Origin: Nitrospira sp.
Lineage (GTDB): Bacteria > Nitrospirota > Nitrospiria > Nitrospirales > Nitrospiraceae
Length of the DNA: 64,000 nt
Direction: 5' to 3'
Assembly (NCBI GenBank): GCA_022226955.1
Contig: CP092079.1
Coordinates: 948,015-1,012,014, forward strand
This document shows positions 1 through 13,702 of this stretch, in pieces. The position numbers and the translations under genes are program-made. The stretch's first letter is position 1. Every line of letters starts with the position of its first letter. Under the pieces are notes generated by a model, which had not been told where the DNA came from, made no database searches, and worked only from the letters and a program-made list of their open reading frames with translations.

Positions 1-269
1 GACGGCATGACCTGGGTGGAGGCCGATGGATTGTGTCCATAGACCAGGACTACGACCACGCGTGGATCCAGTTCCGTCACCCGGGCGGCCGTCTCGGACG
101 GAAGCAAGTCCTCTGCATTCGCATCGATCACGGCAACCGAGATGTGCCGGCGGCGCAGATACGTTGCAATGAGACCCGCCCAAACCGGCGGCTCAATCGC
201 GCTTAAATCGCTGCCCAACGATTGATAGATCTGTGTCCGGCTTCCCGGATTAATGAGGACCACATCCAC
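1..269 (-). CDS. B12-binding domain radical SAM protein, N-terminal part (runs off the left edge)
   Basis: Manual translation from GTG at 269 (RBS GAAGGAG): MDVVLINPGSRTQIYQSLGSDLSAIEPPVWAGLIATYLRRRHISVAVIDANAE...VVVLVYGHNPSAST, typical of the cobalamin-binding N-terminus of class B radical SAM enzymes; not in the ORF track. Confidence 0.7.
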   Translation of the reverse strand, partial: MDVVLINPGSRTQIYQSLGSDLSAIEPPVWAGLIATYLRRRHISVAVIDANAEDLLPSETAARVTELDPRVVVVLVYGHNPSASTQVMP

Positions 270-300
270 GATGCTGTTCTCCTTCACACGAACGAGTGGC

Positions 301-1308
301 TCAATATCGCGCCGAATGCGGCTCTGGCTGGGGAGCCTCCACCTGCACAGTGGCCGATTCGCCCCGCACCCATTTCATAATCCTGGAGGTCACGGCGCCC
401 ACATCGAGTCCGTATTTCTCCCAAATTGCATTGCGCCCGCCATACTCGAACACAAAGCGGTCGTTTTGGCCGATCCGCATCGTCGGAATGCGCAGGTCAT
501 GGTCGATCAACAGTTCGGCAATCGCGCTGCCGAGTCCGCCGGCCAGCAGATGCTCTTCCAACGTCACCAGGCGGTCGACGTTGTGAAGGTATTGCTTCAA
601 CAGCTCGGCATTCATCGGCTTGATGCGAAACGCGTCGATCACTCCCACATTGAGATTGCTCGTCTGGCGGAGAATATCCGCGGCGGCCAGCGCGGTATGC
701 ACCATGACTCCAGTCGCAACGATGCAGACATCTTTCCCCTGGCGCAGTTGCGTCAGTCCATCCGCAATAGCAATCGGCCGCGAGGCATACACCTCGGGAA
801 TCCCCGCGCGGTCGAACCGGATGTATTGCGGCGAGCTGTCCTGATGAACTACCTGCGCCAGCTCGGCGGCGCTGCTGCCGTCGGCCATGCTATAGACTTT
901 CAGGTTCGGCAAGGCCCGCATGATGGAAATGTCCTCAACCGTGTGATGGCTCGGTCCCATGATGTCGTAGGCGTAGCCGGCTCCGACGCCGATCAGCACG
1001 ATCGGGAGATTCATGGCGCACACATCGAGCTTCACCTGCTCGTAGCAGCGCAGACTGACGAACGGCGCAATGGCATAGACGTAGACTTTCTTGCCTTCGA
1101 AGGCCATGCCGCAGGCCATGCCGATCAATTGCTGCTCGGCAATGCCGACATTGATGAACCGGTCGGGAAAATCGCGGGCGAACTGGTCGAGCGTCGGCGC
1201 TCCATTGTCGGCGGTGATGAAGATTGCCTGCGGGTCCCGCTCGAAGATCTTGTAGAGCTCGTTGAAATACCGGTCCCGCATGCCGAGGATAAATTTGGTC
1301 GCTCCCAT
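301..1308 (-). CDS. Transketolase-like enzyme, C-terminal (pyrimidine-binding/C-terminal) subunit
   Basis: DRFINVGIAEQQ, GPSHHTVED and VTLEEH motifs; start moved to MGATK at 1308 (RBS AAAGGA). Confidence 0.9.
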   Translation of the reverse strand: MGATKFILGMRDRYFNELYKIFERDPQAIFITADNGAPTLDQFARDFPDRFINVGIAEQQLIGMACGMAFEGKKVYVYAIAPFVSLRCYEQVKLDVCAMNLPIVLIGVGAGYAYDIMGPSHHTVEDISIMRALPNLKVYSMADGSSAAELAQVVHQDSSPQYIRFDRAGIPEVYASRPIAIADGLTQLRQGKDVCIVATGVMVHTALAAADILRQTSNLNVGVIDAFRIKPMNAELLKQYLHNVDRLVTLEEHLLAGGLGSAIAELLIDHDLRIPTMRIGQNDRFVFEYGGRNAIWEKYGLDVGAVTSRIMKWVRGESATVQVEAPQPEPHSARY

Positions 1309-1363
1309 GGTGACAGTTCCTTTCGGCGCCCTGCCGGGCGCAGTGGCAATGAATGATCCGCCG

Positions 1364-2254
1364 TTAGCCTTGGGCCACATCCTGACGGGTCAATTCCAAA
1401 TCCGTTCCGTCCGGAACGCGGTAGTGCCACAACCGCTGGCCTTCCATCAGCGACGCGCCTTTCCCTTTTTTCGTGTTGGCAACGATCATGAGCGGCTTCT
1501 TGCGCTTCGGCGAACGCATGTCCTTGAGCGCCGACAAAATGTCTGCGTACGAATGTCCATCGATCACCCTGGTCTCGAATCCGAACGCCTTGAACTTTTT
1601 ATCCACCGGATTCAGTTGCGGGTTATCGGAGGCCAACCGCCGGTCGGCAGGGTCCGTCGGGCCGAGCACCCCCTGGCCATTGCGATCGACGATGCAGACG
1701 AGGTTGCGATAGCCTCGGTGCCCCGCATAAATCGCGGCTTCCCAGTTGGAGCCTTCAAATAATTCCGCATCGCCGAGAAAGCAGACCACCAAGTGCTCCT
1801 CATGATTCAACAAGGCGGCTTCCGCCATTCCCGTCGCAATGGGCAGCCCATGCCCCAGCGATCCCGTGATCACTTCGATGCCGGGAATATTCCATTCCGC
1901 ATGAACGCCCAAAATGTTGCCCACGCCAGCGAAATTCTCCAATTCGGACAAGGGGAAAAATCCCAAGTCGGCGAGGATCGGATACAGACCGATGCCGCCT
2001 TGCCCCTTGCTCAGGATGAAACGGTCTCGTCCCGCCCACTTTGGATTGTGCGCGTCGAACCGCAGCAGGCCGCCGTAATACAGCGCCACCAGCAATTCCG
2101 TCTGCGAATAGGCCGTGCTGATATGGCCGCTATGCGCTTTCACCGCCATCTCCAGAACGGTCTTTCGCACCCACTGCGCTTTCGCGCGCAGGTCCGCGTA
2201 GGCGCCTGCGGATTTTGATCGCGGACTGGCGGTCGATGACGATGCTGTCTTCAT
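1364..2254 (-). CDS. Transketolase-like enzyme, N-terminal ThDP-binding subunit
   Basis: SGHIS, DRFILSKG, TGSLGHGL, GDAELFEGSNWEA..(N) ThDP motif, GKG...WHY. Confidence 0.9.
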   Translation of the reverse strand: MKTASSSTASPRSKSAGAYADLRAKAQWVRKTVLEMAVKAHSGHISTAYSQTELLVALYYGGLLRFDAHNPKWAGRDRFILSKGQGGIGLYPILADLGFFPLSELENFAGVGNILGVHAEWNIPGIEVITGSLGHGLPIATGMAEAALLNHEEHLVVCFLGDAELFEGSNWEAAIYAGHRGYRNLVCIVDRNGQGVLGPTDPADRRLASDNPQLNPVDKKFKAFGFETRVIDGHSYADILSALKDMRSPKRKKPLMIVANTKKGKGASLMEGQRLWHYRVPDGTDLELTRQDVAQG

Positions 2255-2985
2255 TGGTCTCCTCCTTGTAGGGCCTCTGTATATGCGTTATGGGATGTCG
2301 AGTATTGCGCCTGAAACGCGGACCATCGCGCTGGCGTGCCGATATCGTGCACAGGCGCCTGCTGCACGCTGGCATACAACCCCTGCCCGACCAGCGTGGG
2401 GAACACGTCGTATTCGAGCGAGCAGGGTCTGCGATCCGGTATTCGGTCGAGGATCGGACGCTCGAACGCATAGATGCCGGCATTGAGATACGCGCCGCGA
2501 GTCTTTTCGTGGAAGCCCGTAATACGCGCCGCCGCATCCAATGCGATGCCGCCGCCATCGCTGCGGCCATCGGCCTTGACCACCGCGACCGTCGCTGCGG
2601 CCTGCCGGGTACGATGCTCAGCGAGAAAAGCAGCCAGGTCGATGGCACAAAATGAATCGCCGTTGAGCACCAAGACCGGCGAGGAATTCAGGTAGCGGCG
2701 GCAGGCTCGCAGCGCCCCAGCGGTCCCGAGTGGAGCGGTTTCGTGAGAAATCGCAACCTCGATATCCGTCCGATGGCCAAAATGCTCGGCGATCCAATGC
2801 CCCTGATGGCCGGTGCAGAACACCAGGCGTCGGAATCCCTGCGAGACCGCCTGATCGACCGGCAGTTCCAGAAACGGCCGGCCGTCGATCAAGGCCATCG
2901 GCTTAGGCCGGTCAGCGACGACCGACCGCAGCCTGGTTCCCAGACCTCCGCACAGAATGACGATGGTGACATCGACTTGGTTCAT
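2251..2985 (-). CDS. hddC: Sugar-1-phosphate nucleotidyltransferase (HddC/GmhD-like guanylyltransferase)
   Basis: LCGGLGTRLRSVVADRPKPMA, PLGTAG, LNGDS motifs; ATG at 2985 overlaps the kinase stop (TAATG). Confidence 0.8.
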   Translation of the reverse strand: MNQVDVTIVILCGGLGTRLRSVVADRPKPMALIDGRPFLELPVDQAVSQGFRRLVFCTGHQGHWIAEHFGHRTDIEVAISHETAPLGTAGALRACRRYLNSSPVLVLNGDSFCAIDLAAFLAEHRTRQAAATVAVVKADGRSDGGGIALDAAARITGFHEKTRGAYLNAGIYAFERPILDRIPDRRPCSLEYDVFPTLVGQGLYASVQQAPVHDIGTPARWSAFQAQYSTSHNAYTEALQGGDQ

Positions 2986-4064
2986 TAGGCGGCGTTCCTC
3001 TTCCATTCCTGCAGGCTTTGCGCGGCCAGGTTCACGAGACTCTGTTTCTCTCCCCAGGCCGGCGCGCGCGTGATCGGCACGTCCTGTTGGTAGAACACGA
3101 TTTGGCTGCCCGCCCTCTCGAATTGAAACGGCACATGGAGCAGTCCTGGAAGCGCCGCATGAATCTTCGCGTGCAACTCGGGTTTCGCGAAAATAAGCAT
3201 GAACCCGCCGCCGCCGGCGCCAAGCAGTTTGCCTCCCAGCGCCCCGGCTCCCCTGGCCGCGTCATAGATCTGGTCGATAAAGGGTGTTGTAATTTTGCTG
3301 GTGAGCCCGCGCTTGACCATCCAGGCTTCGTGAAGCAGTTCGCCGAAATCGCTCAGATCGTGATCGCCCGTGAGGATGGACACGCCCTCCTGCACCATTT
3401 GCAACATGGCAAAGAGTTCGACGCGGCGCTGTTTGGTTTTCTCGATCTGCTCCTTGGCGATATCCGATGCCGTGCGGGAAAACCCCGTGAAGTACAGCAA
3501 CAGGTGATCCTGAAATGCCTGCAACCGCTCCGGCTTCATAATGATCGGGGTATATCCGACCTCTCCAGTCTGCCCAAAGTTGAGCCGGCAGAGTCCTCCG
3601 TAGGCAGCCAGCATCTGGTCTTGCGAGCCGACGGATTCCTGCAAGATCTCCTGCTCGACATGAATAGCCGCTTGCGCCAGTTCCGCTTTGGCCGGCATGC
3701 GATGGCGAAGGGCATAGAGGGCATGCAGCAGGCCGACGGTAAAGGAGGAACTGGACCCCAGCCCGGTTCTGGCCGGCAGATCGCCGTCGTGATGGATCTC
3801 AAGACCGTCCGTTACATTCAAATATTGCAGCACGCCCTTGACTGCAGGATGCTCGATCTCGGCATTGTCCTTCGCATGCTCGATTCTCGAATAGGCAATG
3901 CGCGTCTTATGCTCGAAGAACGGCGGGAGGTGCCGGCAGCTGATATAACAATACTTATCGATGGTGGTGGCGAGCACGGCGCCGCCGTGTTCTTTAAACC
4001 ACACGGGATAATCGGTTCCGCCTCCGAAGAAGGAAATGCGAAAGGGTGTGCGGCTGATAATCAT
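2985..4064 (-). CDS. hddA: GHMP-family sugar kinase (HddA-like D-glycero-D-manno-heptose-7-phosphate kinase)
   Basis: MIISRTPFRISFFGGGTDYP, PARTGLGSSS, GSQDQ, GGKLLGAGGGGF. Confidence 0.88.
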   Translation of the reverse strand: MIISRTPFRISFFGGGTDYPVWFKEHGGAVLATTIDKYCYISCRHLPPFFEHKTRIAYSRIEHAKDNAEIEHPAVKGVLQYLNVTDGLEIHHDGDLPARTGLGSSSSFTVGLLHALYALRHRMPAKAELAQAAIHVEQEILQESVGSQDQMLAAYGGLCRLNFGQTGEVGYTPIIMKPERLQAFQDHLLLYFTGFSRTASDIAKEQIEKTKQRRVELFAMLQMVQEGVSILTGDHDLSDFGELLHEAWMVKRGLTSKITTPFIDQIYDAARGAGALGGKLLGAGGGGFMLIFAKPELHAKIHAALPGLLHVPFQFERAGSQIVFYQQDVPITRAPAWGEKQSLVNLAAQSLQEWKRNAA

Positions 4065-4097
4065 CGAGCCCCTCCTTCGATTCGCGCTCTCACCGCG

Positions 4098-5054
4098 CTA
4101 GACATTGCCGTATCCCGTGCCGGACACGATGGTGTAGCACTTCGTCAATTCCCGGATGCCGCGCGCGAGCGGCCAATCCGGCTTGAATCCGGTCGAGAGA
4201 ATCCGTTCGTTCGACACGATGTAATCCCGTTTGTCGGGATCTTCTCCGATCGGCGCTTCGAAGAAGACAAACTGCGGAATCAGTGTCTTAATTTCCTGGC
4301 ACAACTCCAATTTCGAGAGGTTCGCGTCGTCCAAGCCGACGTTGTAGGCTCGATTCTTCATGCTGTCGAAATGATCGATCGCATGGAGAAAGGCCTGTAC
4401 GACGTCTCTGATATGGATATAGTTCCGTTTACAATGGCCTTCGAATACCACGACGGCCCGGTCATGCACCGCGCGCCAGACGAAGTCGTTGACCAGGAGA
4501 TCCATCCGCATTCGAGGCGATGCGCCAAAGACGGTCGCCAGCCGGAGCGTGATCGCGTTGCCGCGATCCAGCACGACACGTTCGGCCTTGACCTTTGTCT
4601 CGCCATACAGGCTGATAGGCCGTAGCGGCGAATCCTCTGTACAGGGCACACCCGGCTGTCCGATGCCATACCCACTGTTAGTCACCGGAAAGATGATCTG
4701 CTGATTCAACGACGCGAGCTTCGCGATCATCTGCACGGCTTCAAAGTTAATGCTGTACGCCCCGACCCGGTCGCGATTGCATAACGGGGCACCGACCAGC
4801 GCGGCGAGCGGAATAATGATGTCCGCCTCGCGCAGGAGATCCGTCACCACGCGCTCATCCCGGCAATCGCCGCGCACAACCTGGAAGGCCTCGAAGGCGC
4901 AGCAATCCAGCAGGCTGTTTTGTCGATACATAAAATTATCCAGCACAGTGACGCGATAGCCGCGGTCGAGCAGCTGTTTGCAGAGCACCGCTCCGATATA
5001 GCCGGCGCCGCCGGTCACAAGGACATGTGTGCGTGGTGTCGTCATGGCGATCAC
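4098..5054 (-). CDS. NAD-dependent nucleotide-sugar epimerase/dehydratase (extended SDR)
   Basis: VTGGAGYIG, YGETK (YxxxK), RLATVFG. Confidence 0.9.
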   Translation of the reverse strand: MIAMTTPRTHVLVTGGAGYIGAVLCKQLLDRGYRVTVLDNFMYRQNSLLDCCAFEAFQVVRGDCRDERVVTDLLREADIIIPLAALVGAPLCNRDRVGAYSINFEAVQMIAKLASLNQQIIFPVTNSGYGIGQPGVPCTEDSPLRPISLYGETKVKAERVVLDRGNAITLRLATVFGASPRMRMDLLVNDFVWRAVHDRAVVVFEGHCKRNYIHIRDVVQAFLHAIDHFDSMKNRAYNVGLDDANLSKLELCQEIKTLIPQFVFFEAPIGEDPDKRDYIVSNERILSTGFKPDWPLARGIRELTKCYTIVSGTGYGNV

Positions 5055-5060
5055 AACTCC

Positions 5061-6017
5061 TTAGAACTGATGACTGAATGGACGCGACCCGTCTGCGATG
5101 TGCTCTCTTGATGAAGCCTGCCGCATAAACCAACGCACCGTTGTCTCCAGGCCATGCCGCAGACTGGTAAACCGGCAAGCGGGAAACCGATCAGAAAACG
5201 TCGCGCTACGCAAGCGCTTGACCAGCACGCCTTCAGGTTGAGTCGCGTCGAATACCATCGGCCCTGTATAGTCCATGACTGACGCGATGGTTTCGGCCAA
5301 GGTGCGAATCGTAATGCCGCTGTCCGGAGCAATGATGGTTGTGAGGGAATCGCTGCTGCGCTGAATCGCATCGACGACGATCTTGGCGACATCGTCAACA
5401 AAGACGAACTGACGCACCGCACGACCGCTGCCCCAGACGATAAACGGAGCCCCGGTGGTTTTGGCCAGCCAGCACCGATGAATCAGCGCGCCCACCACAT
5501 GACTGCTTTCGGAATCGAAGGAGTCCTGCGGGCCATAAATTGTAACCGGCGTCAGCGTGGTCCACTGCCAGCCTTCTTCTTTCGCTACAAGACGGGTATG
5601 GAGATCCAGCATGCGCTTGGCGTAGCCGTATCCCGCATTACCGGCATAGGGCAGCGCCGTCTGCAGATCGATCTCAGTCGTGGCTCGGTCGGTAAAGATG
5701 GGGAACGCACAACTAGAGAGAAACGAGATCAGTCGCTGCACCCCAAGGGAGCGAGCCGCGGATAGCACTGCGGTATTGATCAACACATTCTCCTCAAAGA
5801 AACGGCTATTGTTCGCCGCATTTGTCTTCACGCCTCCGACCACACCGGCCAGATGGAGGATTTGCGCCGGCCTGATTTGTTCAAGCAGGCGGTGCGCCAC
5901 GCTGCGGTCACGGAGGTCTCCGTCCGCGCGCGATAGAAAGATCGCGTCAGGCCGAAGCTTCCGTATGGCCGATCCCAGCAGGCCGGTTCCACCCGTGACC
6001 AATAGAGGCCCTGTCAT
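5061..6017 (-). CDS. GDP-L-fucose synthase / GDP-colitose synthase-like reductase (Fcl/ColC family)
   Basis: VTGGTGLLG, HLAGVVGG, SSCAF, YGYAKR, WGSGRAVRQF; start MTGPLL overlaps the upstream stop (ATGA). Confidence 0.85.
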   Translation of the reverse strand: MTGPLLVTGGTGLLGSAIRKLRPDAIFLSRADGDLRDRSVAHRLLEQIRPAQILHLAGVVGGVKTNAANNSRFFEENVLINTAVLSAARSLGVQRLISFLSSCAFPIFTDRATTEIDLQTALPYAGNAGYGYAKRMLDLHTRLVAKEEGWQWTTLTPVTIYGPQDSFDSESSHVVGALIHRCWLAKTTGAPFIVWGSGRAVRQFVFVDDVAKIVVDAIQRSSDSLTTIIAPDSGITIRTLAETIASVMDYTGPMVFDATQPEGVLVKRLRSATFSDRFPACRFTSLRHGLETTVRWFMRQASSREHIADGSRPFSHQF

Positions 6018-7210
6018 GCGGCCTCCAGAACAACCTGTGAAATGGTCGCGACATCGTCCGGCGTCAGCGCGGCATGGTTCGGCAGAAAGAAGCCGCAATG
6101 ATGTATCCGGTCGGCAACCGGGAAGCTCGCCGCTCCATACCGGTTGACCCAGAATGGGTGGAGCCCCAGATTGCCGGCTGAGAAAATGCGGGTTTCAATT
6201 CCGCGCGTCACAAGTGCGTGAACAATTCGCTGGCGTTGCTGGCGCGACTCCGCCAACAGACCGACCGAAATACTGGCCACCTGGCTGTTCTTCGGAGGAC
6301 GTTGGGCATAGAAACTGGAACTGAGGCGGTCCAGATAGCGCGCATGGTTCGCCCGGCGCTGTTCCGTCATCCAGTCCAGCTTCTCGACTTGTCCGATTCC
6401 AATAAAGGCATTGAGATCGGTCGAGCGGAGATTGAATCCCGGTTCATAGAAGACAAAGGGAGAGTGAAAGTCATCGATCTGGTATTGGGTGACCAATGCG
6501 CGATGGGTCTCGGGACCCAGGTCTTTGCTCCACCCGTGACTTCGAAGCATCAACAGCAAATCGGCCAGCTCTTTGTCATTGGTCGAGACCATGCCGCCTT
6601 CAATGGTCGACATCTGATGGCCGAAGTAGAAGGAAAAACTGGCCATGTCGCCGAACGAGCCGACTTTCTGCCCGTCATAACTCGCACCAATGGCGGCGCA
6701 GGCATCTTCCAGCAACAGGAAGCCATAGCGCTCTTTCAGAGCCATCAGCTCCCGCATCTTATGCGGGACGCCCAATACCTGAACGAGCATGACCGTCTGC
6801 GGTTGATGTTGCTTCAACAGCTCTTCCAGGTGATTCAGATCCAAGCCGAAGGTGTCTGGGTCGGCTTCGCACATGATCGGCTCGAAGCCGAATTGAATCG
6901 CGGGAGCGATGGATGTCACCCAGCCGACGCTGGGCACAATGACTTTCTTGTTCCTCAAGCGTCCGGAAGCCAGCAGGGCGTAATACATGAGCAAGTTCGC
7001 CGACGATCCAGAATTGCAAAAGACGGAATGGGAGTCACCCAGCCATTGCGACCAACGCGATTCGAACTCGACGGTGATCGGGCCTTTCGTCAGGCGAGGA
7101 TAGGTGTGCAGCCATTCCACTAAGCGATCGATGTCCTGCCGATCGATGGTGTCGTAAGCAAGGCACCATCGAGGATTCAAAGTCTGCGGCGCTGCATGAC
7201 GGCCTTCCAT
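6014..7210 (-). CDS. colD: PLP-dependent DegT/DnrJ-fold enzyme, ColD-like GDP-4-keto-6-deoxy-sugar 3-dehydratase
   Basis: NSGSSANL, LLEDAC, SFYFGHQMSTIEGG with His at the usual Schiff-base Lys position, RSHGW (no Fe-S Cys motif of E1/RfbH), GFNLRSTDL; RBS GAGGAG. Confidence 0.75.
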   Translation of the reverse strand: MEGRHAAPQTLNPRWCLAYDTIDRQDIDRLVEWLHTYPRLTKGPITVEFESRWSQWLGDSHSVFCNSGSSANLLMYYALLASGRLRNKKVIVPSVGWVTSIAPAIQFGFEPIMCEADPDTFGLDLNHLEELLKQHQPQTVMLVQVLGVPHKMRELMALKERYGFLLLEDACAAIGASYDGQKVGSFGDMASFSFYFGHQMSTIEGGMVSTNDKELADLLLMLRSHGWSKDLGPETHRALVTQYQIDDFHSPFVFYEPGFNLRSTDLNAFIGIGQVEKLDWMTEQRRANHARYLDRLSSSFYAQRPPKNSQVASISVGLLAESRQQRQRIVHALVTRGIETRIFSAGNLGLHPFWVNRYGAASFPVADRIHHCGFFLPNHAALTPDDVATISQVVLEAA

Positions 7211-7265: not shown

Positions 7266-7281
7266 TACAAGTTATGTGCCA
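7266..7281 (-). promoter_or_regulatory. Candidate sigma54 promoter of the sugar operon
   Basis: TGGCAC-ATAAC-TTGTA: GG-N10-GT, about 55 bp upstream of colD; the -12 is GT rather than GC. Confidence 0.5.
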
Positions 7282-7416: not shown

Positions 7417-8136
7417 TTAGTGAAGTGGAATCGGATCGGCGGTTTTCTGCGAGGTCCATTGCTCGATGGCCTGTCGAACGGACCCGCCCCACCCGCGATA
7501 TTCGATATATTCCATTTCGTGAAAGCGAAATTCGATGCCGAGCGTCCAAGACTCCTGTGTGGACTCGACACTTTTGACAAGCCCCGTCAAATTCGTGACA
7601 TGCCCAAGCCCGGCCAGTTCAAACTCCATACGCAACGAGGTTCCTGCCCGCAGCCACGACGGAGCCTGCGGAACAATCACGCTGCACCCGCCGGTGCTCA
7701 AATTTTGAAGCAGCCCGCCGACGATGGATGCCGACGGCACGCCTCCCACTACAGCGCGGTTTGCCCGCTCGAGAATGATCGGCTCGCTGGATAGCACGCG
7801 GGTATGTTTGCGTAAATGCATCTCTTCCACAGCTTGCGGAAATGCGATGAAGAGCAGCGGCACCGGCGCCGTCAACCTGTCTCGAATTTCCGTGCGATAC
7901 CCAACCAGCTTTCCATTGTGGAGATAGCTGACCGTGCAAGGGGTTCCTGGCGGAATATCCACTCCACTGCCGACCTGCAATGGCCACTCGCAGATCAGCC
8001 AGGCGTAGTCTTTCCATCCCAGGAGCGTCGATCCATACAGCACCTTTTCCCCACTGAGCATAAAGGATAACTTGAGGGAAAGGCCGACCGTGAGGAAAGA
8101 CGCCGGCGAGAGTTGTGTCGTGGTCACATCGTTCAT
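7417..8136 (-). CDS. PilZ-domain c-di-GMP receptor, YcgR/flagellar brake-like
   Basis: N-terminal YcgR-like beta domain, then RKHTR (RxxxR) and NLSTGG (D/NxSxxG); ATGA overlap with the HD-GYP stop. Confidence 0.85.
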   Translation of the reverse strand: MNDVTTTQLSPASFLTVGLSLKLSFMLSGEKVLYGSTLLGWKDYAWLICEWPLQVGSGVDIPPGTPCTVSYLHNGKLVGYRTEIRDRLTAPVPLLFIAFPQAVEEMHLRKHTRVLSSEPIILERANRAVVGGVPSASIVGGLLQNLSTGGCSVIVPQAPSWLRAGTSLRMEFELAGLGHVTNLTGLVKSVESTQESWTLGIEFRFHEMEYIEYRGWGGSVRQAIEQWTSQKTADPIPLH

Positions 8137-9599: not shown

Positions 9600-10862
9600 A
9601 TGAGCGGAACGAAGCAGATTTCTGTTGAGCAGTTGATACCGGGCATGTTCATCGTAGAGATGGATCTTCCCTGGTATCGCACACCCTTTCTCTTCCATAA
9701 ACGCCTGATTCGCGATGTCGAAACGATTACGGTGATGAAGCAGCATGGCGTCCGGCACGTCACCATCGATACAACGAAAGGGTTGGACCTACAGATACTG
9801 ACATCCACACCATCCGCCAAACCTGAACTTCCGGCGGCTGTGCCGAATAGTGAAGCCCCCGACTGTGAAACGGTGGAGGAATCCGGCTCCATCCCCATCT
9901 TCATAAGCCGCAGCGTGTCCGCGGTGTATGGGGAAGCGCGCGAGGCGGTGGAGCGTATCTTTACCGACTTGGAACGCGGAGTCCCCCCGGCTCCGGCCGC
10001 CACCAAGGCGATTGTAGGTGGCGTCATCACGCAAGTATTGCAGGACCGCAGCGCACTTCTGTTGCACAGCACCTTCCACAAGGTCAAACAGTTCGACCGG
10101 TCGCTGGGCGCCCATGCCTTGGACACGGCCATCTTGTCGCTGGTCGTTGCCGTTGAAAGCGGCATCGATTCGTCTCTCTACGAACATCTGGGGATCGGTG
10201 CGCTTTTGCACGATGTCGGTTACGTCAGACTTCCTCGCAACCTAGTCCGCAAACGGGACGACTGCACGGAGTCGGAGCAGCGCCTGTTAGAACAACATAC
10301 CCAATTGGGCGTGACGGTGCTTGACGAGCAAGCTGGGTTTCATCCAGAAGTGTGCCGAGTGGTCATGGAGCATCATGAGCGTTGCGATGGAAGCGGATAT
10401 CCGCGAAAGATAGCGGGCGATGCTATTTCGCCACTGGCTCAAATTGTTGGAATCGTAGACTTCTACGACAAGATGATCAGCCGCCGTGGTGGCCGGCCGG
10501 CGATGATTCCTCACGACGCGGTCCGTCAATTATTTCTGGTTGGAGAGCGCGGACAATACCCCAAGCTGTTAGTTGAAGCAGTTATCCGAAGTATCGGCGT
10601 ATACCCCGTGGGAAGCCTCGTTCGTTTGAATACCGGAGAGCAAGCGGTGGTGGTCGGAGTCAACCCGGAACAGCGCTTGAAGCCGCAAGTGAAGATTACC
10701 GGAGGGCCGCATGGAGAATCCTATGCCAATCCTGAACAGGTGGATCTCTCCCTCCCTTCGCAAGATAAGGTATCGCGCACCGTCTTACGCGTACTGGACC
10801 CTATTCAAGAGCGTGTCAATATTGCCATGTACATGGGCGATGCCCCGGATCAGGCAGCCTAA
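9600..10862 (+). CDS. HD-GYP domain protein with DUF3391-like N-terminus
   Basis: LHDVGY, HHERCDGSGYP, VDFYD, GVYPVGSLVRLNTGE; start MSGTKQ (RBS GAGGAG). Confidence 0.9.
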   Translation: MSGTKQISVEQLIPGMFIVEMDLPWYRTPFLFHKRLIRDVETITVMKQHGVRHVTIDTTKGLDLQILTSTPSAKPELPAAVPNSEAPDCETVEESGSIPIFISRSVSAVYGEAREAVERIFTDLERGVPPAPAATKAIVGGVITQVLQDRSALLLHSTFHKVKQFDRSLGAHALDTAILSLVVAVESGIDSSLYEHLGIGALLHDVGYVRLPRNLVRKRDDCTESEQRLLEQHTQLGVTVLDEQAGFHPEVCRVVMEHHERCDGSGYPRKIAGDAISPLAQIVGIVDFYDKMISRRGGRPAMIPHDAVRQLFLVGERGQYPKLLVEAVIRSIGVYPVGSLVRLNTGEQAVVVGVNPEQRLKPQVKITGGPHGESYANPEQVDLSLPSQDKVSRTVLRVLDPIQERVNIAMYMGDAPDQAA

Positions 10863-13702
10863 TGAAGCAGCTTCCACAAGGACGGCGTCCCGCCTCGATT
10901 CGACCGGTGAAGAAACGGCCGGCGCAGGAGCATCAAGGACTTCTGGACGGGCTGCCGATCGGCGTCATCCTGCTGAGCCAGGATGGAGTCATCGCGGCGA
11001 TGAATGCAGAAAGCGCCCGTTTGTGCGGAGCAGGCGTAACAAGCGCTATTGGCGCATCGTTTCCGGAACTGTGGGAGCGGTTGACCGAGCAGACGGCGGC
11101 CGTCACCAAACAGATCATTCAGCAAGTCTTTCGCACGAAGCAGCCCAAGCAACCCGCTCAAGTCTGTCTACAGTGCGACTCCAACCGCTCCATTCCGGTT
11201 GAGTGGACCTGTATGCCGGCCAGCTTCGGCCGGCAAGTCGGCGTCTCGATCAGTCTTCAGGACAAGTCTCGGGAACAGGAGCTGACGTACGATCGCAACC
11301 GGCTCGCATCGATTGCCGATGAAAGCCCCTACCCAATTCTTGAGCTCGACGATCAGGCCAGTCTGCTCTATGCCAATCCCATGATGAGCGAGCTGTTGAC
11401 TCAATTCGGCTACGGAACCGACGGCTTTCCTCAAGTGGCTCCGCAGGGATTGCTCGATCTTGTCCAGCGCTGTCTGGACTCAAATAGGCCTATCCAGGAA
11501 ATTGCCTCCCGCCTCCCCGACGCGCGGTATGCCTGGGTCTTCTGCCCGGTGCAGGCAGACCGCCATGTTCGTGGATATGCCGTAGACCTGACCGAAATGC
11601 AGCGGACGAAAGAAGCCCTCCATGCCTCGGCTGAGGAACTGACTGCGAAAAATCTGCGACTGGATCGGGCGCTTCAGGAAGCGCAAGCCGCCACGCATAC
11701 CAAAGCGGCATTTCTTGCGACCGTCAGTCATGAACTGCGCACTCCCATGAATGGAGTGATTGGCATGACCAGCTTGTTGATGGATACCGGACTGGCGCCA
11801 GAACAGCGCTCGTACGCCGAGACCATTCGCCAATGCGGGGAAGCGCTCCTGCACTTGATTAACGATGTGCTGGAGTGCAGTAAAATCGAAGCGGGAAAAC
11901 TCGAGTTGGAATCGATCGAGTTTAATCTGCGCACGACCGTGGACGATGTGCTAAAGCAGTTTGCCGAACGAGCCGAATCCAAGGGATTGGAATTGACCGG
12001 TCTCATTCATGCCACCGTGCCCACCGGGCTGCGAGGCGACCCGGGCCGGCTCCGCCAGGTCCTGACAAATCTCGTCGGGAACGCAATTAAGTTTACCGAG
12101 CGTGGAGATGTCGCTCTGCAGGTGTATCTCGAAGAGGAAACCACCGGCGACGCGCGGCTCCGATTCGATGTGACCGACAGCGGCATCGGCATCAGCCAGG
12201 AAATCCAGGACAAGCTCTTTCAGCCGTTCGTCCAAGCGGATTCGACCATGACCCGGCAGTATGGAGGAACGGGGCTCGGCTTATCGATTTCCAAACAGTT
12301 GATTGAATTGATGGGTGGACGGATCGGCGTCATGAGCGCGCCGGGGCGCGGCAGCACCTTCTGGTGTACGGTCCGCTTTCCGAAGCAGCCCTCATCGGTG
12401 TCGGCGATTCTTCCCACGGCGGATCTTCAAGGCCGCCGTGTGCTCATCGTGGATGACAATGAGTCCAATCGGCTCATCCTGCATCATCTGGTCACCGGCT
12501 GGGGCATGCGGGATGTCCTTGCGGAGAATGCGGCCACCGCCGTGGCGCACATTGAGGACGCTTCGTGGCGTGGAGCTCCATTCGATTGTGCGATTGTCGA
12601 TGTCGTGATGCCTGGCAAAGACGGCTTGCAATTAGCAGCTGAGCTGCAAAGCCTCCCCTGTGCCGCGCCGACGCGGATCATTGTCATGACTTCTTTATTG
12701 CAGCGAGGACATGCCGAGCGAGCGCGCAAGGTGGGGGCCAAAGGCTATCTTACCAAGCCAGTTCGGCATGATGAATTGCGCGATTGTCTGCGCACAGTGC
12801 TGGGAATGTCTGCGGTTTCAGTCAATGTACCGCAGGCAGACGATACCGCCACACCGCGCTTGGTCACACGGCATACCTTGGCAGAGCCTTCTACACGTCG
12901 AAGGGTGCTCGTTGTCGAAGACAACAGCGTCAATCAGAAGCTCGCCGTGCGGATGCTGGAGAAGCTGGGGTATCGGCCCGATTTAGTCGAGAATGGGCAA
13001 GAGGCCTTGGCCGCACTCGACGCAGGTGCCTATGACGCGGTTCTCATGGATTGCCAGATGCCGGTCATGGACGGGTTCGAGGCCACGGCGACGATTCGGC
13101 GCCAAGAAGCAGCCGGAAAGCGCTATGTCGGCGCCGGCCATTTGCCGATCATTGCGGTGACGGCCAATGCGATGCAAGGCGATCGTGAACGCTGTCTTGC
13201 CGCCGGCATGGATGCGTACCTTTCCAAGCCTATCAAGCTGGAGGATGTGAAAACCACACTGGCGCGATGGATCGCGGCTCCGGCATCGGAAGAAGCACAG
13301 ACGGGCGCAGGGAACCACGCGAATGCCGCGCCCGATGGCCAGAGGGTTTTCAACCCATCGCAAATGCTCCAGAATATTGGAGACGATCACGATCTTCTGA
13401 TTCAATTGATCGACCTGTTTCTCGAACGCCAGACTGACATGATGCGTCAGATCCGGCAGGCCGTCTCTCTTCGCGACGCGGCGACGGTGGAGCGGGCGGC
13501 GCACACGCTCAAAGGCACCGCCGGAAACCTCTGTGCTCAGGAAGTGGCACTGGCCGCAGGGCGGCTCGAAACCATTGGCCGGCAGGGAACGCTTCACGAC
13601 GCTCCGGCCATCTATGCACAGCTCGAAATGGAAATTCTTCGCCTATGCCGCGCCCTCGAACAGTATCGCGGGGCGAACGGTGCCGCGGCTCAAGCCGCAT
13701 AA
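10862..13702 (+). CDS. Cytoplasmic hybrid histidine kinase (PAS-PAS-HisKA-HATPase-REC-REC-HPt)
   Basis: SHELRTPMNG H-box, NLVGNAIKFT, DSGIG, GGTGLGL, two REC domains (IVDVVMP, LMDCQMP), AHTLKG HPt; TAATG overlap with the upstream gene. Confidence 0.93.
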   Translation: MKQLPQGRRPASIRPVKKRPAQEHQGLLDGLPIGVILLSQDGVIAAMNAESARLCGAGVTSAIGASFPELWERLTEQTAAVTKQIIQQVFRTKQPKQPAQVCLQCDSNRSIPVEWTCMPASFGRQVGVSISLQDKSREQELTYDRNRLASIADESPYPILELDDQASLLYANPMMSELLTQFGYGTDGFPQVAPQGLLDLVQRCLDSNRPIQEIASRLPDARYAWVFCPVQADRHVRGYAVDLTEMQRTKEALHASAEELTAKNLRLDRALQEAQAATHTKAAFLATVSHELRTPMNGVIGMTSLLMDTGLAPEQRSYAETIRQCGEALLHLINDVLECSKIEAGKLELESIEFNLRTTVDDVLKQFAERAESKGLELTGLIHATVPTGLRGDPGRLRQVLTNLVGNAIKFTERGDVALQVYLEEETTGDARLRFDVTDSGIGISQEIQDKLFQPFVQADSTMTRQYGGTGLGLSISKQLIELMGGRIGVMSAPGRGSTFWCTVRFPKQPSSVSAILPTADLQGRRVLIVDDNESNRLILHHLVTGWGMRDVLAENAATAVAHIEDASWRGAPFDCAIVDVVMPGKDGLQLAAELQSLPCAAPTRIIVMTSLLQRGHAERARKVGAKGYLTKPVRHDELRDCLRTVLGMSAVSVNVPQADDTATPRLVTRHTLAEPSTRRRVLVVEDNSVNQKLAVRMLEKLGYRPDLVENGQEALAALDAGAYDAVLMDCQMPVMDGFEATATIRRQEAAGKRYVGAGHLPIIAVTANAMQGDRERCLAAGMDAYLSKPIKLEDVKTTLARWIAAPASEEAQTGAGNHANAAPDGQRVFNPSQMLQNIGDDHDLLIQLIDLFLERQTDMMRQIRQAVSLRDAATVERAAHTLKGTAGNLCAQEVALAAGRLETIGRQGTLHDAPAIYAQLEMEILRLCRALEQYRGANGAAAQAA

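Follow-up and report, generated by a model that had tools for sequence, protein, structure and literature searches.

Gene content of the operon and its flagellin context

The stretch analyzed here (the window) comprises 64,000 nucleotides of a complete 3.64 Mb Nitrospira sp. genome (GCA_022226955.1, contig CP092079.1; G000:C1:948015-1012014 in our own labels, in which G and L numbers denote genomes and sequence stretches). At one end, positions 1-7210, it carries an operon of eight co-directional, partly overlapping minus-strand genes, which were identified from open reading frames (ORFs) and Pfam and NCBIfam profile searches and are listed in Table 1. These encode a ColD-type nucleotide-sugar 3-dehydratase, an Fcl-like and a Cj1427-like short-chain dehydrogenase/reductase (SDR), an HddA-like kinase, an HddC-like nucleotidyltransferase, a split transketolase and a B12-binding radical S-adenosylmethionine (SAM) enzyme. 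In related islands two other classes of thiamine-dependent enzyme take the place of the split transketolase, and the interpretation given below largely turns on this exchange.

The first-pass annotation of this DNA had described a tightly coupled minus-strand operon, and all of the genes it named were found there, with ATGA overlaps at the ColD/Fcl junction and at the junction of HddC with the N-terminal transketolase subunit, and TAATG at the HddA/HddC junction, where position 2985 is an alternative HddC start. A sigma-54-like element, TGGCAC-N5-TTGTA, lies approximately 55 nt upstream of the ColD start, while scans for terminator-like sites and for sigma-70 promoters returned nothing beyond shuffle expectation. 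Further upstream are genes for an HD-GYP protein and for a YcgR-like PilZ protein, the latter being found in the same position in G118, G142, G055 and G013.

Table 1. Features of the operon and its upstream border. Positions are those of the window unless another sequence is named.
Feature	Position	Strand	Basis or remark
ColD-type pyridoxal/pyridoxamine phosphate (PLP/PMP)-dependent nucleotide-sugar 3-dehydratase (DegT), 398 amino acids (aa), operon gene 1	6014-7210	-	Pfam, Protein Data Bank (PDB) relatives, His198
Fcl/ColC-like epimerase-reductase SDR, 318 aa	5061-6017	-	Start placed at ATGA overlap with ColD stop
Cj1427-like nucleotide-heptose C4-dehydrogenase SDR, 315 aa	4098-5045	-	Match to PDB 6VO6/6VO8
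HddA-like GHMP sugar kinase, 359 aa	2985-4064	-	Pfam GHMP_kinases_N and GHMP_kinases_C
HddC/ManC-like sugar-1-phosphate nucleotidyl (probably guanylyl) transferase	2251-3006, or 2251-2985 by alternative start	-	Pfam NTP_transferase
Split transketolase, N-terminal (PP-domain) subunit TKN, 296 aa	1364-2254	-	Pfam Transketolase_N
Split transketolase, C-terminal (Pyr and C domain) subunit TKC, 359 aa	301-1380	-	Pfam Transket_pyr and Transketolase_C; possible start Met25
B12-binding radical SAM gene, 5' 95 codons, cut by window edge	1-287	-	Pfam B12-binding and Radical_SAM
Whole B12 radical SAM gene, 516 aa	L001:237-1787, end G000:C1:946751	-	Read beyond window
Possible sigma-54-type promoter, tentative	7266-7281	-	Read from sequence; -12 element GT, not GC
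YcgR-like PilZ protein, conserved upstream border of island	7417-8136	-	Pfam PilZNR and PilZ

Beyond the window edge, on the same strand, the rest of the radical SAM gene is followed by genes for a 2176-aa giant glycosyltransferase, a GT9 protein, a DUF3880/Glyco_trans_1_2 protein, a second GT9 protein, a small ORF, a 275-aa flagellin (fliC) and FliD. The giant protein combines several GT1/GT2/GT4 domains with a methyltransferase domain and tetratricopeptide (TPR) repeats, and the central region of the flagellin is 29% Ser/Thr. Sugar and glycosyltransferase genes are thus contiguous with flagellin genes, and the link to fliC and fliD recurs in a second genus (G120) and in another member of the window's genus (G142). 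While the description of the operon as flagellum-adjacent was correct, it understated a gene array which runs through the glycosyltransferases into fliC and fliD. From this context we predict that the operon makes up the sugar-producing half of an island of approximately 26 kb for the glycosylation of flagellin.

The small ORF directly upstream of fliC (L002:6624-7301, minus strand) has no family match, and its true start is probably an internal Met at approximately 7139. It is kept in the same place in G120 and G142 (37-44% identity) and may encode a flagellin-specific chaperone or glycosylation accessory factor. As a 225-aa ORF it was also considered as the missing GmhB-type phosphatase and was rejected, having no Pfam match, no HAD motif and only a 16-bit match to a phosphoserine phosphatase.

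The operon has no gene for GmhA, GmhB or a 4,6-dehydratase. Elsewhere the genome encodes GmhA, an HldA-like kinase and a GmhB-like domain fused to a GT9 protein. This 611-aa fusion of a GT9 heptosyltransferase domain with a GmhB-like HAD phosphatase domain (L091:238-2073; G000:C1:2761204-2763039, plus strand) is the sole GmhB-type match in the genome (126 bits versus a cut-off of 150), and the flagellin island probably relies on it for dephosphorylation of heptose-1,7-bisphosphate.

The sugar-building enzymes

The DegT protein matched Pfam DegT_DnrJ_EryC1 (PF01041) with 249 bits, and its best PDB relatives were ColD structures (2GMS/3GR9, E 2e-48). Its His198, within the motif FYFGHQMSTIEGG, aligns with ColD His188, the column being fixed through the mutant entries 3B8X and 2R0T (H188N, H188K), and so replaces the Schiff-base Lys of aminotransferases, as in ColD-type 3-dehydratases. 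This His was present in every aligned DegT adjoining a transketolase of the window's type, whereas the Lys-type DegTs of unrelated loci differ at the position. The protein is most likely a ColD-type 3-dehydratase, with a predicted role in 3-deoxygenation of a 4-keto nucleotide sugar.

The Fcl-like SDR has GDP-L-fucose synthases as its best PDB relatives (E 5e-57), and scored 173 bits against a cut-off of 500 for the NCBIfam GDP-L-fucose synthase model, and thus is no Fcl orthologue. It is 30% identical to E. coli Fcl and keeps the Ser-Tyr-Lys triad as well as the Cys109/His179 acid-base pair (Ser107, Cys109, Tyr136, Lys140 and His179 are all conserved). The syntenic islands of G120 and G055, like L010/L011, do not contain the gene, and because of this the enzyme is not considered part of the core route.

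With respect to the second SDR, which had been annotated as an epimerase, the match to 6VO6/6VO8 extended over residues 10-313 with 375 bits (E 2.9e-111), while the next PDB match reached 93 bits and all other solved SDRs stayed below 94 bits. Going by the molecule name of the entry, we take 6VO6/6VO8 to be C. jejuni Cj1427, a GDP-heptose C4-dehydrogenase and not an epimerase. Cj1427 contains tightly bound NADH which is recycled by alpha-ketoglutarate and oxidizes C4 without 4,6-dehydration; together with the HS:5 C3-dehydratase it converts GDP-heptose in vitro to GDP-D-glycero-3-deoxy-4-keto-D-threo-heptose, and the 3-deoxyheptoses derived from this were called novel by the authors (PMC10680097).

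The likeness of the kinase to HddA and of the nucleotidyltransferase to HddC, also part of the earlier annotation, was borne out in kind, but both proteins fall below the curated equivalog cut-offs. The kinase scored 123 bits against a cut-off of 600 for NCBIfam HddA, its best PDB relatives being the heptose kinases 3K85, 4USK and 4N3O. The nucleotidyltransferase carries a GGxGTRL motif and scored 109 bits against 300 for HddC and 148 against 440 for mannose-1-phosphate guanylyltransferase; it is probably guanylyl-specific, judging from its GDP-type partners. Of the sugar genes, HddC showed the lowest conservation in all comparisons (41-55% aa identity).

A split transketolase with replaced substrate-recognition residues

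The best PDB relative of TKN was 6YAK, the split transketolase of C. hydrogenoformans (E 2e-48), and that of TKC was 6YAJ (E 8e-55), while the NCBIfam transketolase equivalog scores for the pair were 205 and 172, with a cut-off of 488. The alignment of the two subunits also took in 68 split-transketolase pairs of other genomes, E. coli TktA and the genome's own Tkt. TKN keeps His26, His100, Asp155, Asn185 and His261 and is changed at H66Q and I187Q; TKC keeps Arg358, Glu411, His473 and Arg520 and is changed at S385P, F434I, H461G, I464Y and D469M. The thiamine diphosphate (ThDP)-binding and catalytic residues (His26, His100, Asp155, Asn185, His261, Glu411 and His473) are therefore canonical, while four substrate-recognition residues, His66, Ser385, His461 and Asp469, are replaced by Gln, Pro, Gly and Met. 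In transketolases the replaced positions recognize the phosphate and the 2-hydroxyl of sugar-phosphate substrates.

The same seven changes (H66Q, I187Q, S385P, F434I, H461G, I464Y and D469M) were present in all transketolases of this cassette type and form a signature of the clade, in which the cofactor-binding and catalytic residues, Arg358 and Arg520 are all kept. Canonical residues were retained in E. coli TktA, in the genome's own Tkt and in 45 of 50 ordinary split pairs sampled (approximately 40% identical), the five exceptions falling in two other divergent clades. These are formed by L035, L052 and L057 (Paraburkholderia, an unclassified Pseudomonadota metagenome-assembled genome and Polaromonas) and by L054 and L066; in one of the two, His100 is replaced by Leu, His461 by Gly, Asp469 by Leu and Arg520 by Lys, and in the other Arg358 by Leu, His461 by Ser, Asp469 by Leu and Arg520 by Lys.

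A separate canonical full-length Tkt of 621 aa is encoded elsewhere in the genome. Because of this, and because of the clade's changed recognition residues, the island transketolase is on sequence grounds not a housekeeping enzyme.

The B12 radical SAM enzyme

The radical SAM protein has an N-terminal B12-binding domain (PF02310, 57 bits) and a radical SAM core (PF04055, 51 bits) with a CxxxCxxC motif, CPYHCAYC, at residues 228-235, and thus has the composition of a class B radical SAM enzyme. In NCBIfam the best matches were HpnJ (159 bits, cut-off 578) and BchE (148 bits), AprD4 scored 76 bits, no curated subfamily cut-off being reached, and the best PDB relative was AprD4 (6FD2, E 9e-17, 64 bits). 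Among class B reactions, C-methylation is the most frequent.

Several islands contain a further B12 radical SAM gene which is only distantly related to the first (20-28% identity), and in G118 a 381-aa ORF without a Pfam match is also found in the variable slot described below. The coordinates for these features are L149:14063-15208, L149:15162-17057, L151:10489-11721 and L009:13570-15195. Both are missing from the island of the window.

Three thiamine enzymes exchanged in one position of the island

An orthologue of ColD (at least 69% identical) was found in 28 of 151 Nitrospiraceae genomes sampled, including six of 19 from the window's own genus. Its distribution is thus patchy, and two complete genomes, G114 and G001, were without any Cj1427-like gene. 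The islands share a frame which reads PilZ, ColD, Fcl (where present), Cj1427-like, HddA, HddC, a variable slot, giant glycosyltransferase, GT9, DUF3880, GT9, small ORF, fliC and fliD. In G120 and G142 it was followed from end to end, while the stretches of G118 and G055 end within the glycosyltransferases and the contig of G013 ends just after the slot.

Three kinds of slot were observed. The split transketolase with a radical SAM enzyme occupies it in four genomes (the window's own, G120, G124 and G128). In 19 genomes it holds a class I/II aminotransferase, a radical SAM enzyme and a 612-aa enzyme of acetolactate-synthase fold, the islands of G142 and G055 having been read and the other 17 identified by search, with the 612-aa gene 7-8 kb from ColD where both are on one contig. 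In three genomes (G118, G013 and G082) it holds an SDR, an aminotransferase, E1 alpha and E1 beta subunits and two radical SAM enzymes. The slot content of two fragmentary genomes was left unassigned. None of the 28 genomes carried two of the three thiamine enzymes together, which were mutually exclusive in 26 of the 28 islands, and a B12 radical SAM homologue stood beside the thiamine enzyme in every island read.

The best solved relative of the 612-aa enzyme was 8RPH (327 bits), which is JanthE, a YerE-like ketone-accepting carboligase according to the JanthE paper, and the E1-type pair has E1_dh and Transket_pyr/Transketolase_C domains. Three enzyme classes are known or proposed to branch sugars, namely decarboxylase-type YerE-like enzymes, E1-type "alpha-keto acid dehydrogenase 2" enzymes and split-gene transketolases (PMC12247030, a 2025 review). 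Branching of keto-sugars is established only for the first two; the transketolase version has never been demonstrated, the case of miharamycin and amipurimycin being unproven and all 13 predicted examples coming from Streptomycetes (PMC12247030).

The island transketolase lies beside enzymes for a deoxy-4-keto sugar and is interchangeable with relatives of both established classes, the two features expected of a keto-sugar-branching enzyme. Because three non-homologous enzymes of one chemistry share a single pathway slot, its displacement by the other two classes is strong evidence for the predicted role of the transketolase as the carboligation enzyme. The aminotransferase was found only with the two decarboxylating enzyme types, YerE-like and E1, which would fit the supply of a 2-oxo acid donor that a transketolase does not need.

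Comparison of the window at the DNA level with G118, which has the closest related island, gave 79% identity from 10862 to approximately 2700, inside HddC. Over the transketolase and radical SAM genes the two sequences had no similarity, and the match began again inside the giant glycosyltransferase. The breakpoints of the exchange lie at approximately 2700 of the window and at approximately L002:17080, within the N-terminal part of the 2176-aa protein. Since they fall inside these two genes, the C-terminus of HddC and the first glycosyltransferase domain would move together with the thiamine and radical SAM genes. The closest counterparts of the transketolase and radical SAM genes themselves are in another genus (G120, 73% DNA identity). 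By these alignments the thiamine and radical SAM genes are exchanged as a unit. For the radical SAM protein, identity is 75-87% among transketolase-type islands but only 48-55% between island types, ColD being 82-91% identical within the genus. As the radical SAM enzyme co-varies with the thiamine enzyme, we infer that it acts on the branch or the branched product and not on the common heptose core.

Occurrence of the cassette in other phyla

Genome and metagenome scans recovered the same transketolase clade (47-90% identity) from Nitrospira, Chloroflexi, Cytophagia, Lindowbacteria, Verrucomicrobia, Planctomycetes, Liptonbacteria and others. Loci were compared by tblastn with the window proteins, greedy choice of the longest ORF picking antisense ORFs in GC-rich loci. 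The neighbourhood search that had been proposed for this enzyme set showed that the cassette recurs: within 10 kb of the transketolase in 13 long non-Nitrospira loci there was a B12 radical SAM homologue in 12, a DegT related to that of the window, with the ColD-type His in all loci aligned, in 11, and a Cj1427-like SDR and an HddA-like kinase in 10 each. Flagellin-linked glycosyltransferases were found beside the cassette only in Nitrospira-type loci. The literature searches made turned up no account of a transketolase and B12 radical SAM cassette, none of sugar branching by transketolases beyond Streptomyces and none of the glycosylation of flagellin in Nitrospira.

Two tandem split-transketolase pairs with approximately 40% mutual identity were observed at L020:6688-8390 and 10001-11817 (Verrucomicrobia) and at L021:337-2045 and 3605-5440 (an unclassified uncultured bacterium). 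In both stretches a His-type DegT lies between the two pairs, followed by one or two B12 radical SAM genes.

Proposed pathway and alternative explanations

In the pathway we propose, GDP-heptose would be made first, the Cj1427-like dehydrogenase would oxidize C4, and the His-type ColD-like enzyme would remove the 3-hydroxyl to give GDP-D-glycero-3-deoxy-4-keto-heptose, each of these steps having characterized homologues. The split transketolase would then act as a thiamine-dependent carboligase and add a two-carbon hydroxyacetyl unit to the keto-sugar, most likely at the C4 carbonyl, giving a tertiary alcohol as with YerE, and the B12 radical SAM enzyme may afterwards modify the branched product by C-methylation or another radical step. 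The Fcl-like enzyme would be optional, serving either to epimerize C5 of the 4-keto intermediate before branching or to reduce a carbonyl afterwards. The GT9 proteins, the other glycosyltransferases and the TPR-bearing giant enzyme would attach the sugar to Ser/Thr of the 275-aa flagellin, and strains which swap the thiamine and radical SAM module would carry a different branch, and so a different flagellar surface in each lineage. In G120 and G055, where the island carries neither Fcl nor another reductase, the C4 ketone would be either consumed by carboligation or re-reduced by the NADH of the Cj1427-like enzyme.

These proposals are held with different degrees of confidence. We are reasonably confident that the island encodes a pathway, linked to flagellin, by which a 3-deoxy sugar is made from GDP-heptose, and consider it likely, though slightly less so, that the transketolase forms a carbon-carbon bond on a nucleotide sugar. 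The full statement, in which a 3-deoxyheptose branched at C4 and modified by the radical SAM enzyme is attached to flagellin, is favored by a narrow balance of the evidence. The first-pass annotation had suggested a branched or C2-extended, perhaps methylated 3-deoxy GDP-sugar for a flagellar or lipopolysaccharide glycan, methylation being only one option for the radical SAM enzyme; the slot replacements, the altered active site and the in vitro chemistry of the C. jejuni homologues (PMC10680097) support such a sugar, and the gene context points to the flagellar target.

Several observations weigh against the C4-branched reading. The closest solved structure to the radical SAM enzyme, AprD4, is a diol dehydratase and not a methylase, and the nearest families, HpnJ and BchE, are likewise non-methylases. 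The C4-dehydrogenase assignment depends on 6VO6/6VO8 being Cj1427, as we presume. The Fcl-like protein keeps the Cys/His pair used for epimerization beside a 4-keto group, which suggests that in the window's strain C4 may be conventionally reduced, leaving no ketone for branching unless the transketolase acts first. The missing reductase in other islands is not conclusive, since Cj1427-type enzymes, with their tightly bound NADH, could also carry out the re-reduction of C4. Beyond loci of the Nitrospira type, which come from Nitrospiraceae genomes and metagenome contigs like them, flagellin was not within 10 kb of the cassette, and the acceptor is for this reason regarded as context-specific. 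Finally, no transketolase is experimentally known to accept a ketone or a nucleotide sugar, miharamycin and amipurimycin being proposed cases only (PMC12247030).

The alternative which survives best, itself unlikely, is extension of the side chain. The radical SAM enzyme would dehydrate the C6-C7 diol of the GDP-heptose to a C7 aldehyde and the transketolase would add a C2 ketol to this, giving a linear nine-carbon 3,6-dideoxy sugar of which the Fcl-like enzyme would reduce C4. This would accommodate AprD4, a sugar diol dehydratase, as best solved relative, the finding that the transketolase adjoins a radical SAM gene in 12 of the 13 long loci from outside Nitrospira, and the full catalytic set for a 4-keto substrate kept in the Fcl-like enzyme. 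An aldehyde without an alpha-hydroxyl would also fit the loss of His461 and of Asp469, the residue that senses the acceptor's 2-hydroxyl, as engineered D469 variants of E. coli transketolase accept such aldehydes. However, HpnJ and BchE outscore AprD4 in NCBIfam and all three are far below cut-off, the enzymes which replace the transketolase are closest to the ketone-accepting YerE-like group, islands without Fcl would keep an unreduced C4 ketone, and one locus (L015) has the transketolase and a Cj1427-like gene with no radical SAM gene within 10 kb.

A second alternative accepts the proposed sugar pathway and places the glycan on lipopolysaccharide or another envelope structure, the proximity of fliC reflecting co-regulation or chance. 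Though GT9 is the family of the lipopolysaccharide heptosyltransferases, and in other phyla the cassette was not within 10 kb of flagellin genes, we regard this as doubtful. Two Nitrospiraceae genera (that of G120 and, with G142, that of the window) share the entire array from PilZ to fliC and fliD, the island showed no gene for Wzx/Wzy, an ABC transporter or the priming of a lipid carrier, and the giant glycosyltransferase bears TPR repeats, as does the Caulobacter flagellin glycosyltransferase FlmG. Protein O-heptosyltransferases of GT9 fold are moreover known, TibC and AAH being examples.

The thiamine and radical SAM enzymes could also build a separate small substituent, such as an acyloin or acyl group formed from a keto acid or ketose, which is attached later to an ordinary GDP-3-deoxyheptose or to the glycan, the heptose skeleton itself being unbranched and colitose-like. 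In none of the three island types did the slot contain a carrier protein, lipoyl domain, ligase or acyltransferase, the keto-sugar would have no route to a finished sugar in G120 and G055, where the island has no Fcl, and the cassette transketolase nearly always accompanies enzymes that make a 4-keto sugar. We therefore consider this scheme improbable, although in some pathways to antibiotics carrier proteins receive C2 units from split transketolases and the class I/II aminotransferase of the YerE- and E1-type islands could feed amino-acid-derived keto acids. In its favor too, the ColD-like, Fcl-like and Cj1427-like enzymes constitute a complete 3-deoxyheptose route, the product of which has been made in vitro (PMC10680097).

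That the split transketolase merely supplies sedoheptulose-7-phosphate or another ketose phosphate as precursor, which the first-pass annotation had named as the explanation that would refute its own, is very improbable despite homology to genuine transketolases and retention of the cofactor residues and two phosphate-binding arginines, and is effectively ruled out by the canonical Tkt elsewhere in the genome, by replacement of the four recognition residues across the whole clade and by sister islands in which a YerE-like enzyme or an E1 pair, neither able to make ketose phosphates, stands instead, there being also no GmhA beside the transketolase of the window's island. A bradyrhizose-like, inositol-fused sugar (heptose with C2 branch, cyclization and methyl) was also considered as the product; the sole genetics paper calls the genes unknown and points to a dTDP-glucose-dehydratase cluster with no transketolase, and the idea was left as unsupported speculation.

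Relation to known systems

The capsular GDP-heptose pathways of C. jejuni, which employ HddA, HddC, Cj1427, the HS:5 C3-dehydratase and C4-reductases, resemble the predicted route in starting from D-glycero-D-manno-heptose in its GDP-activated form and in using a close Cj1427 homologue, a His-type 3-dehydratase and an Fcl-type reductase (PMC10680097). They differ in that the natural 3-deoxy route starts with a 4,6-dehydratase and leads to 3,6-dideoxyheptoses, the 6-hydroxy-3-deoxy series being only artificial (PMC10680097), and in having no thiamine or radical SAM enzyme, a capsule target, and GmhA and GmhB within the cluster, where here they are encoded elsewhere. In GDP-colitose synthesis (ColD and ColC) a His-for-Lys PMP 3-dehydratase is likewise followed by an Fcl-like C5-epimerase/C4-reductase acting on a GDP-4-keto sugar. 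Colitose is a 6-deoxy hexose made from GDP-mannose via a 4,6-dehydratase, whereas the window's pathway would use a heptose with a 4-keto group made by a dehydrogenase, would keep the 6-hydroxyl and would add the thiamine and radical SAM steps.

The predicted branching step is like the YerE/YerF step of CDP-yersiniose A synthesis and the reactions of the YerE-like enzymes PpYerE, JanthE and ErwE, in which an acyl anion equivalent is added to the C4 ketone of a 3-deoxy-4-keto nucleotide sugar (PMC12247030, PMC9306805), and a YerE/JanthE-like enzyme itself occupies the same slot in sister islands. Unlike YerE, a decarboxylase-family (acetolactate-synthase-like) enzyme, the window's enzyme is a two-subunit transketolase; its expected donor is a ketol (hydroxyacetyl) and not pyruvate, and its scaffold would be a GDP-heptose in place of a CDP-3,6-dideoxyhexose. 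The Yersinia pathway has no B12 radical SAM partner, while the window's island has one. The E1-type enzymes of aldgamycin, kibdelomycin and avilamycin are also two-subunit thiamine enzymes adding a C2 branch to a keto-sugar, and such a pair is found in the slot of G118, G013 and G082; those pathways belong to actinomycete secondary metabolism, and the window carries the transketolase version. The nearest parallel to that version is the proposal for miharamycin and amipurimycin, where a split transketolase stands downstream of a keto-sugar-making oxidoreductase and the same reaction is proposed (PMC12247030). The comparison is by description only, and the clusters in question serve antibiotic synthesis in Streptomyces and act on the sugar core of a nucleoside, whereas the window's island is one of Gram-negative protein glycosylation.

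As for the radical SAM enzyme, it shares with GenK and GenD1 (C-methylation) and AprD4 (diol dehydration, B12-like domain) a B12 domain, a CxxxCxxC core and a link to sugar tailoring, but is only distantly like the class B sugar enzymes, as the AprD4 and HpnJ scores given above indicate.

Significance

Thiamine-dependent formation of acyl-branched deoxy sugars is an already known class of chemistry. The elements predicted to be new are the GDP-heptose scaffold which keeps its 6-hydroxyl, the re-tooled transketolase, the obligatory B12 radical SAM partner, the probable flagellin acceptor and the three interchangeable thiamine enzymes. Taken at its fullest, the proposal is of an undescribed nine- or ten-carbon sugar, a 3-deoxy-heptose with a thiamine-installed hydroxyacetyl branch altered by a B12 radical SAM enzyme and O-linked to flagellin, of the first transketolase with a nucleotide keto-sugar as acceptor, and of Nitrospira glycan diversity generated by swapping three unrelated carboligases. 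We put this forward tentatively, rating it a little short of an even chance.

The island constitutes a defined test system, in that the presumed acceptor, GDP-D-glycero-3-deoxy-4-keto-heptose, has already been made enzymatically (PMC10680097), and the sister islands, in which an E1 pair or a YerE-like enzyme fills this position, provide natural controls. A ketone-accepting transketolase would, if confirmed, be of interest to biocatalysis as a source of functionalized tertiary alcohols. The 6-hydroxy-3-deoxyheptose series, so far an in vitro product only, is given a predicted natural role, and a widespread, uncharacterized transketolase and B12 radical SAM cassette is tied to a concrete acceptor protein, flagellin. 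For nitrite oxidizers, the swapping of this module would be a source of flagellar surface diversity, which may bear on their recognition by phages and predators in wastewater and soil.

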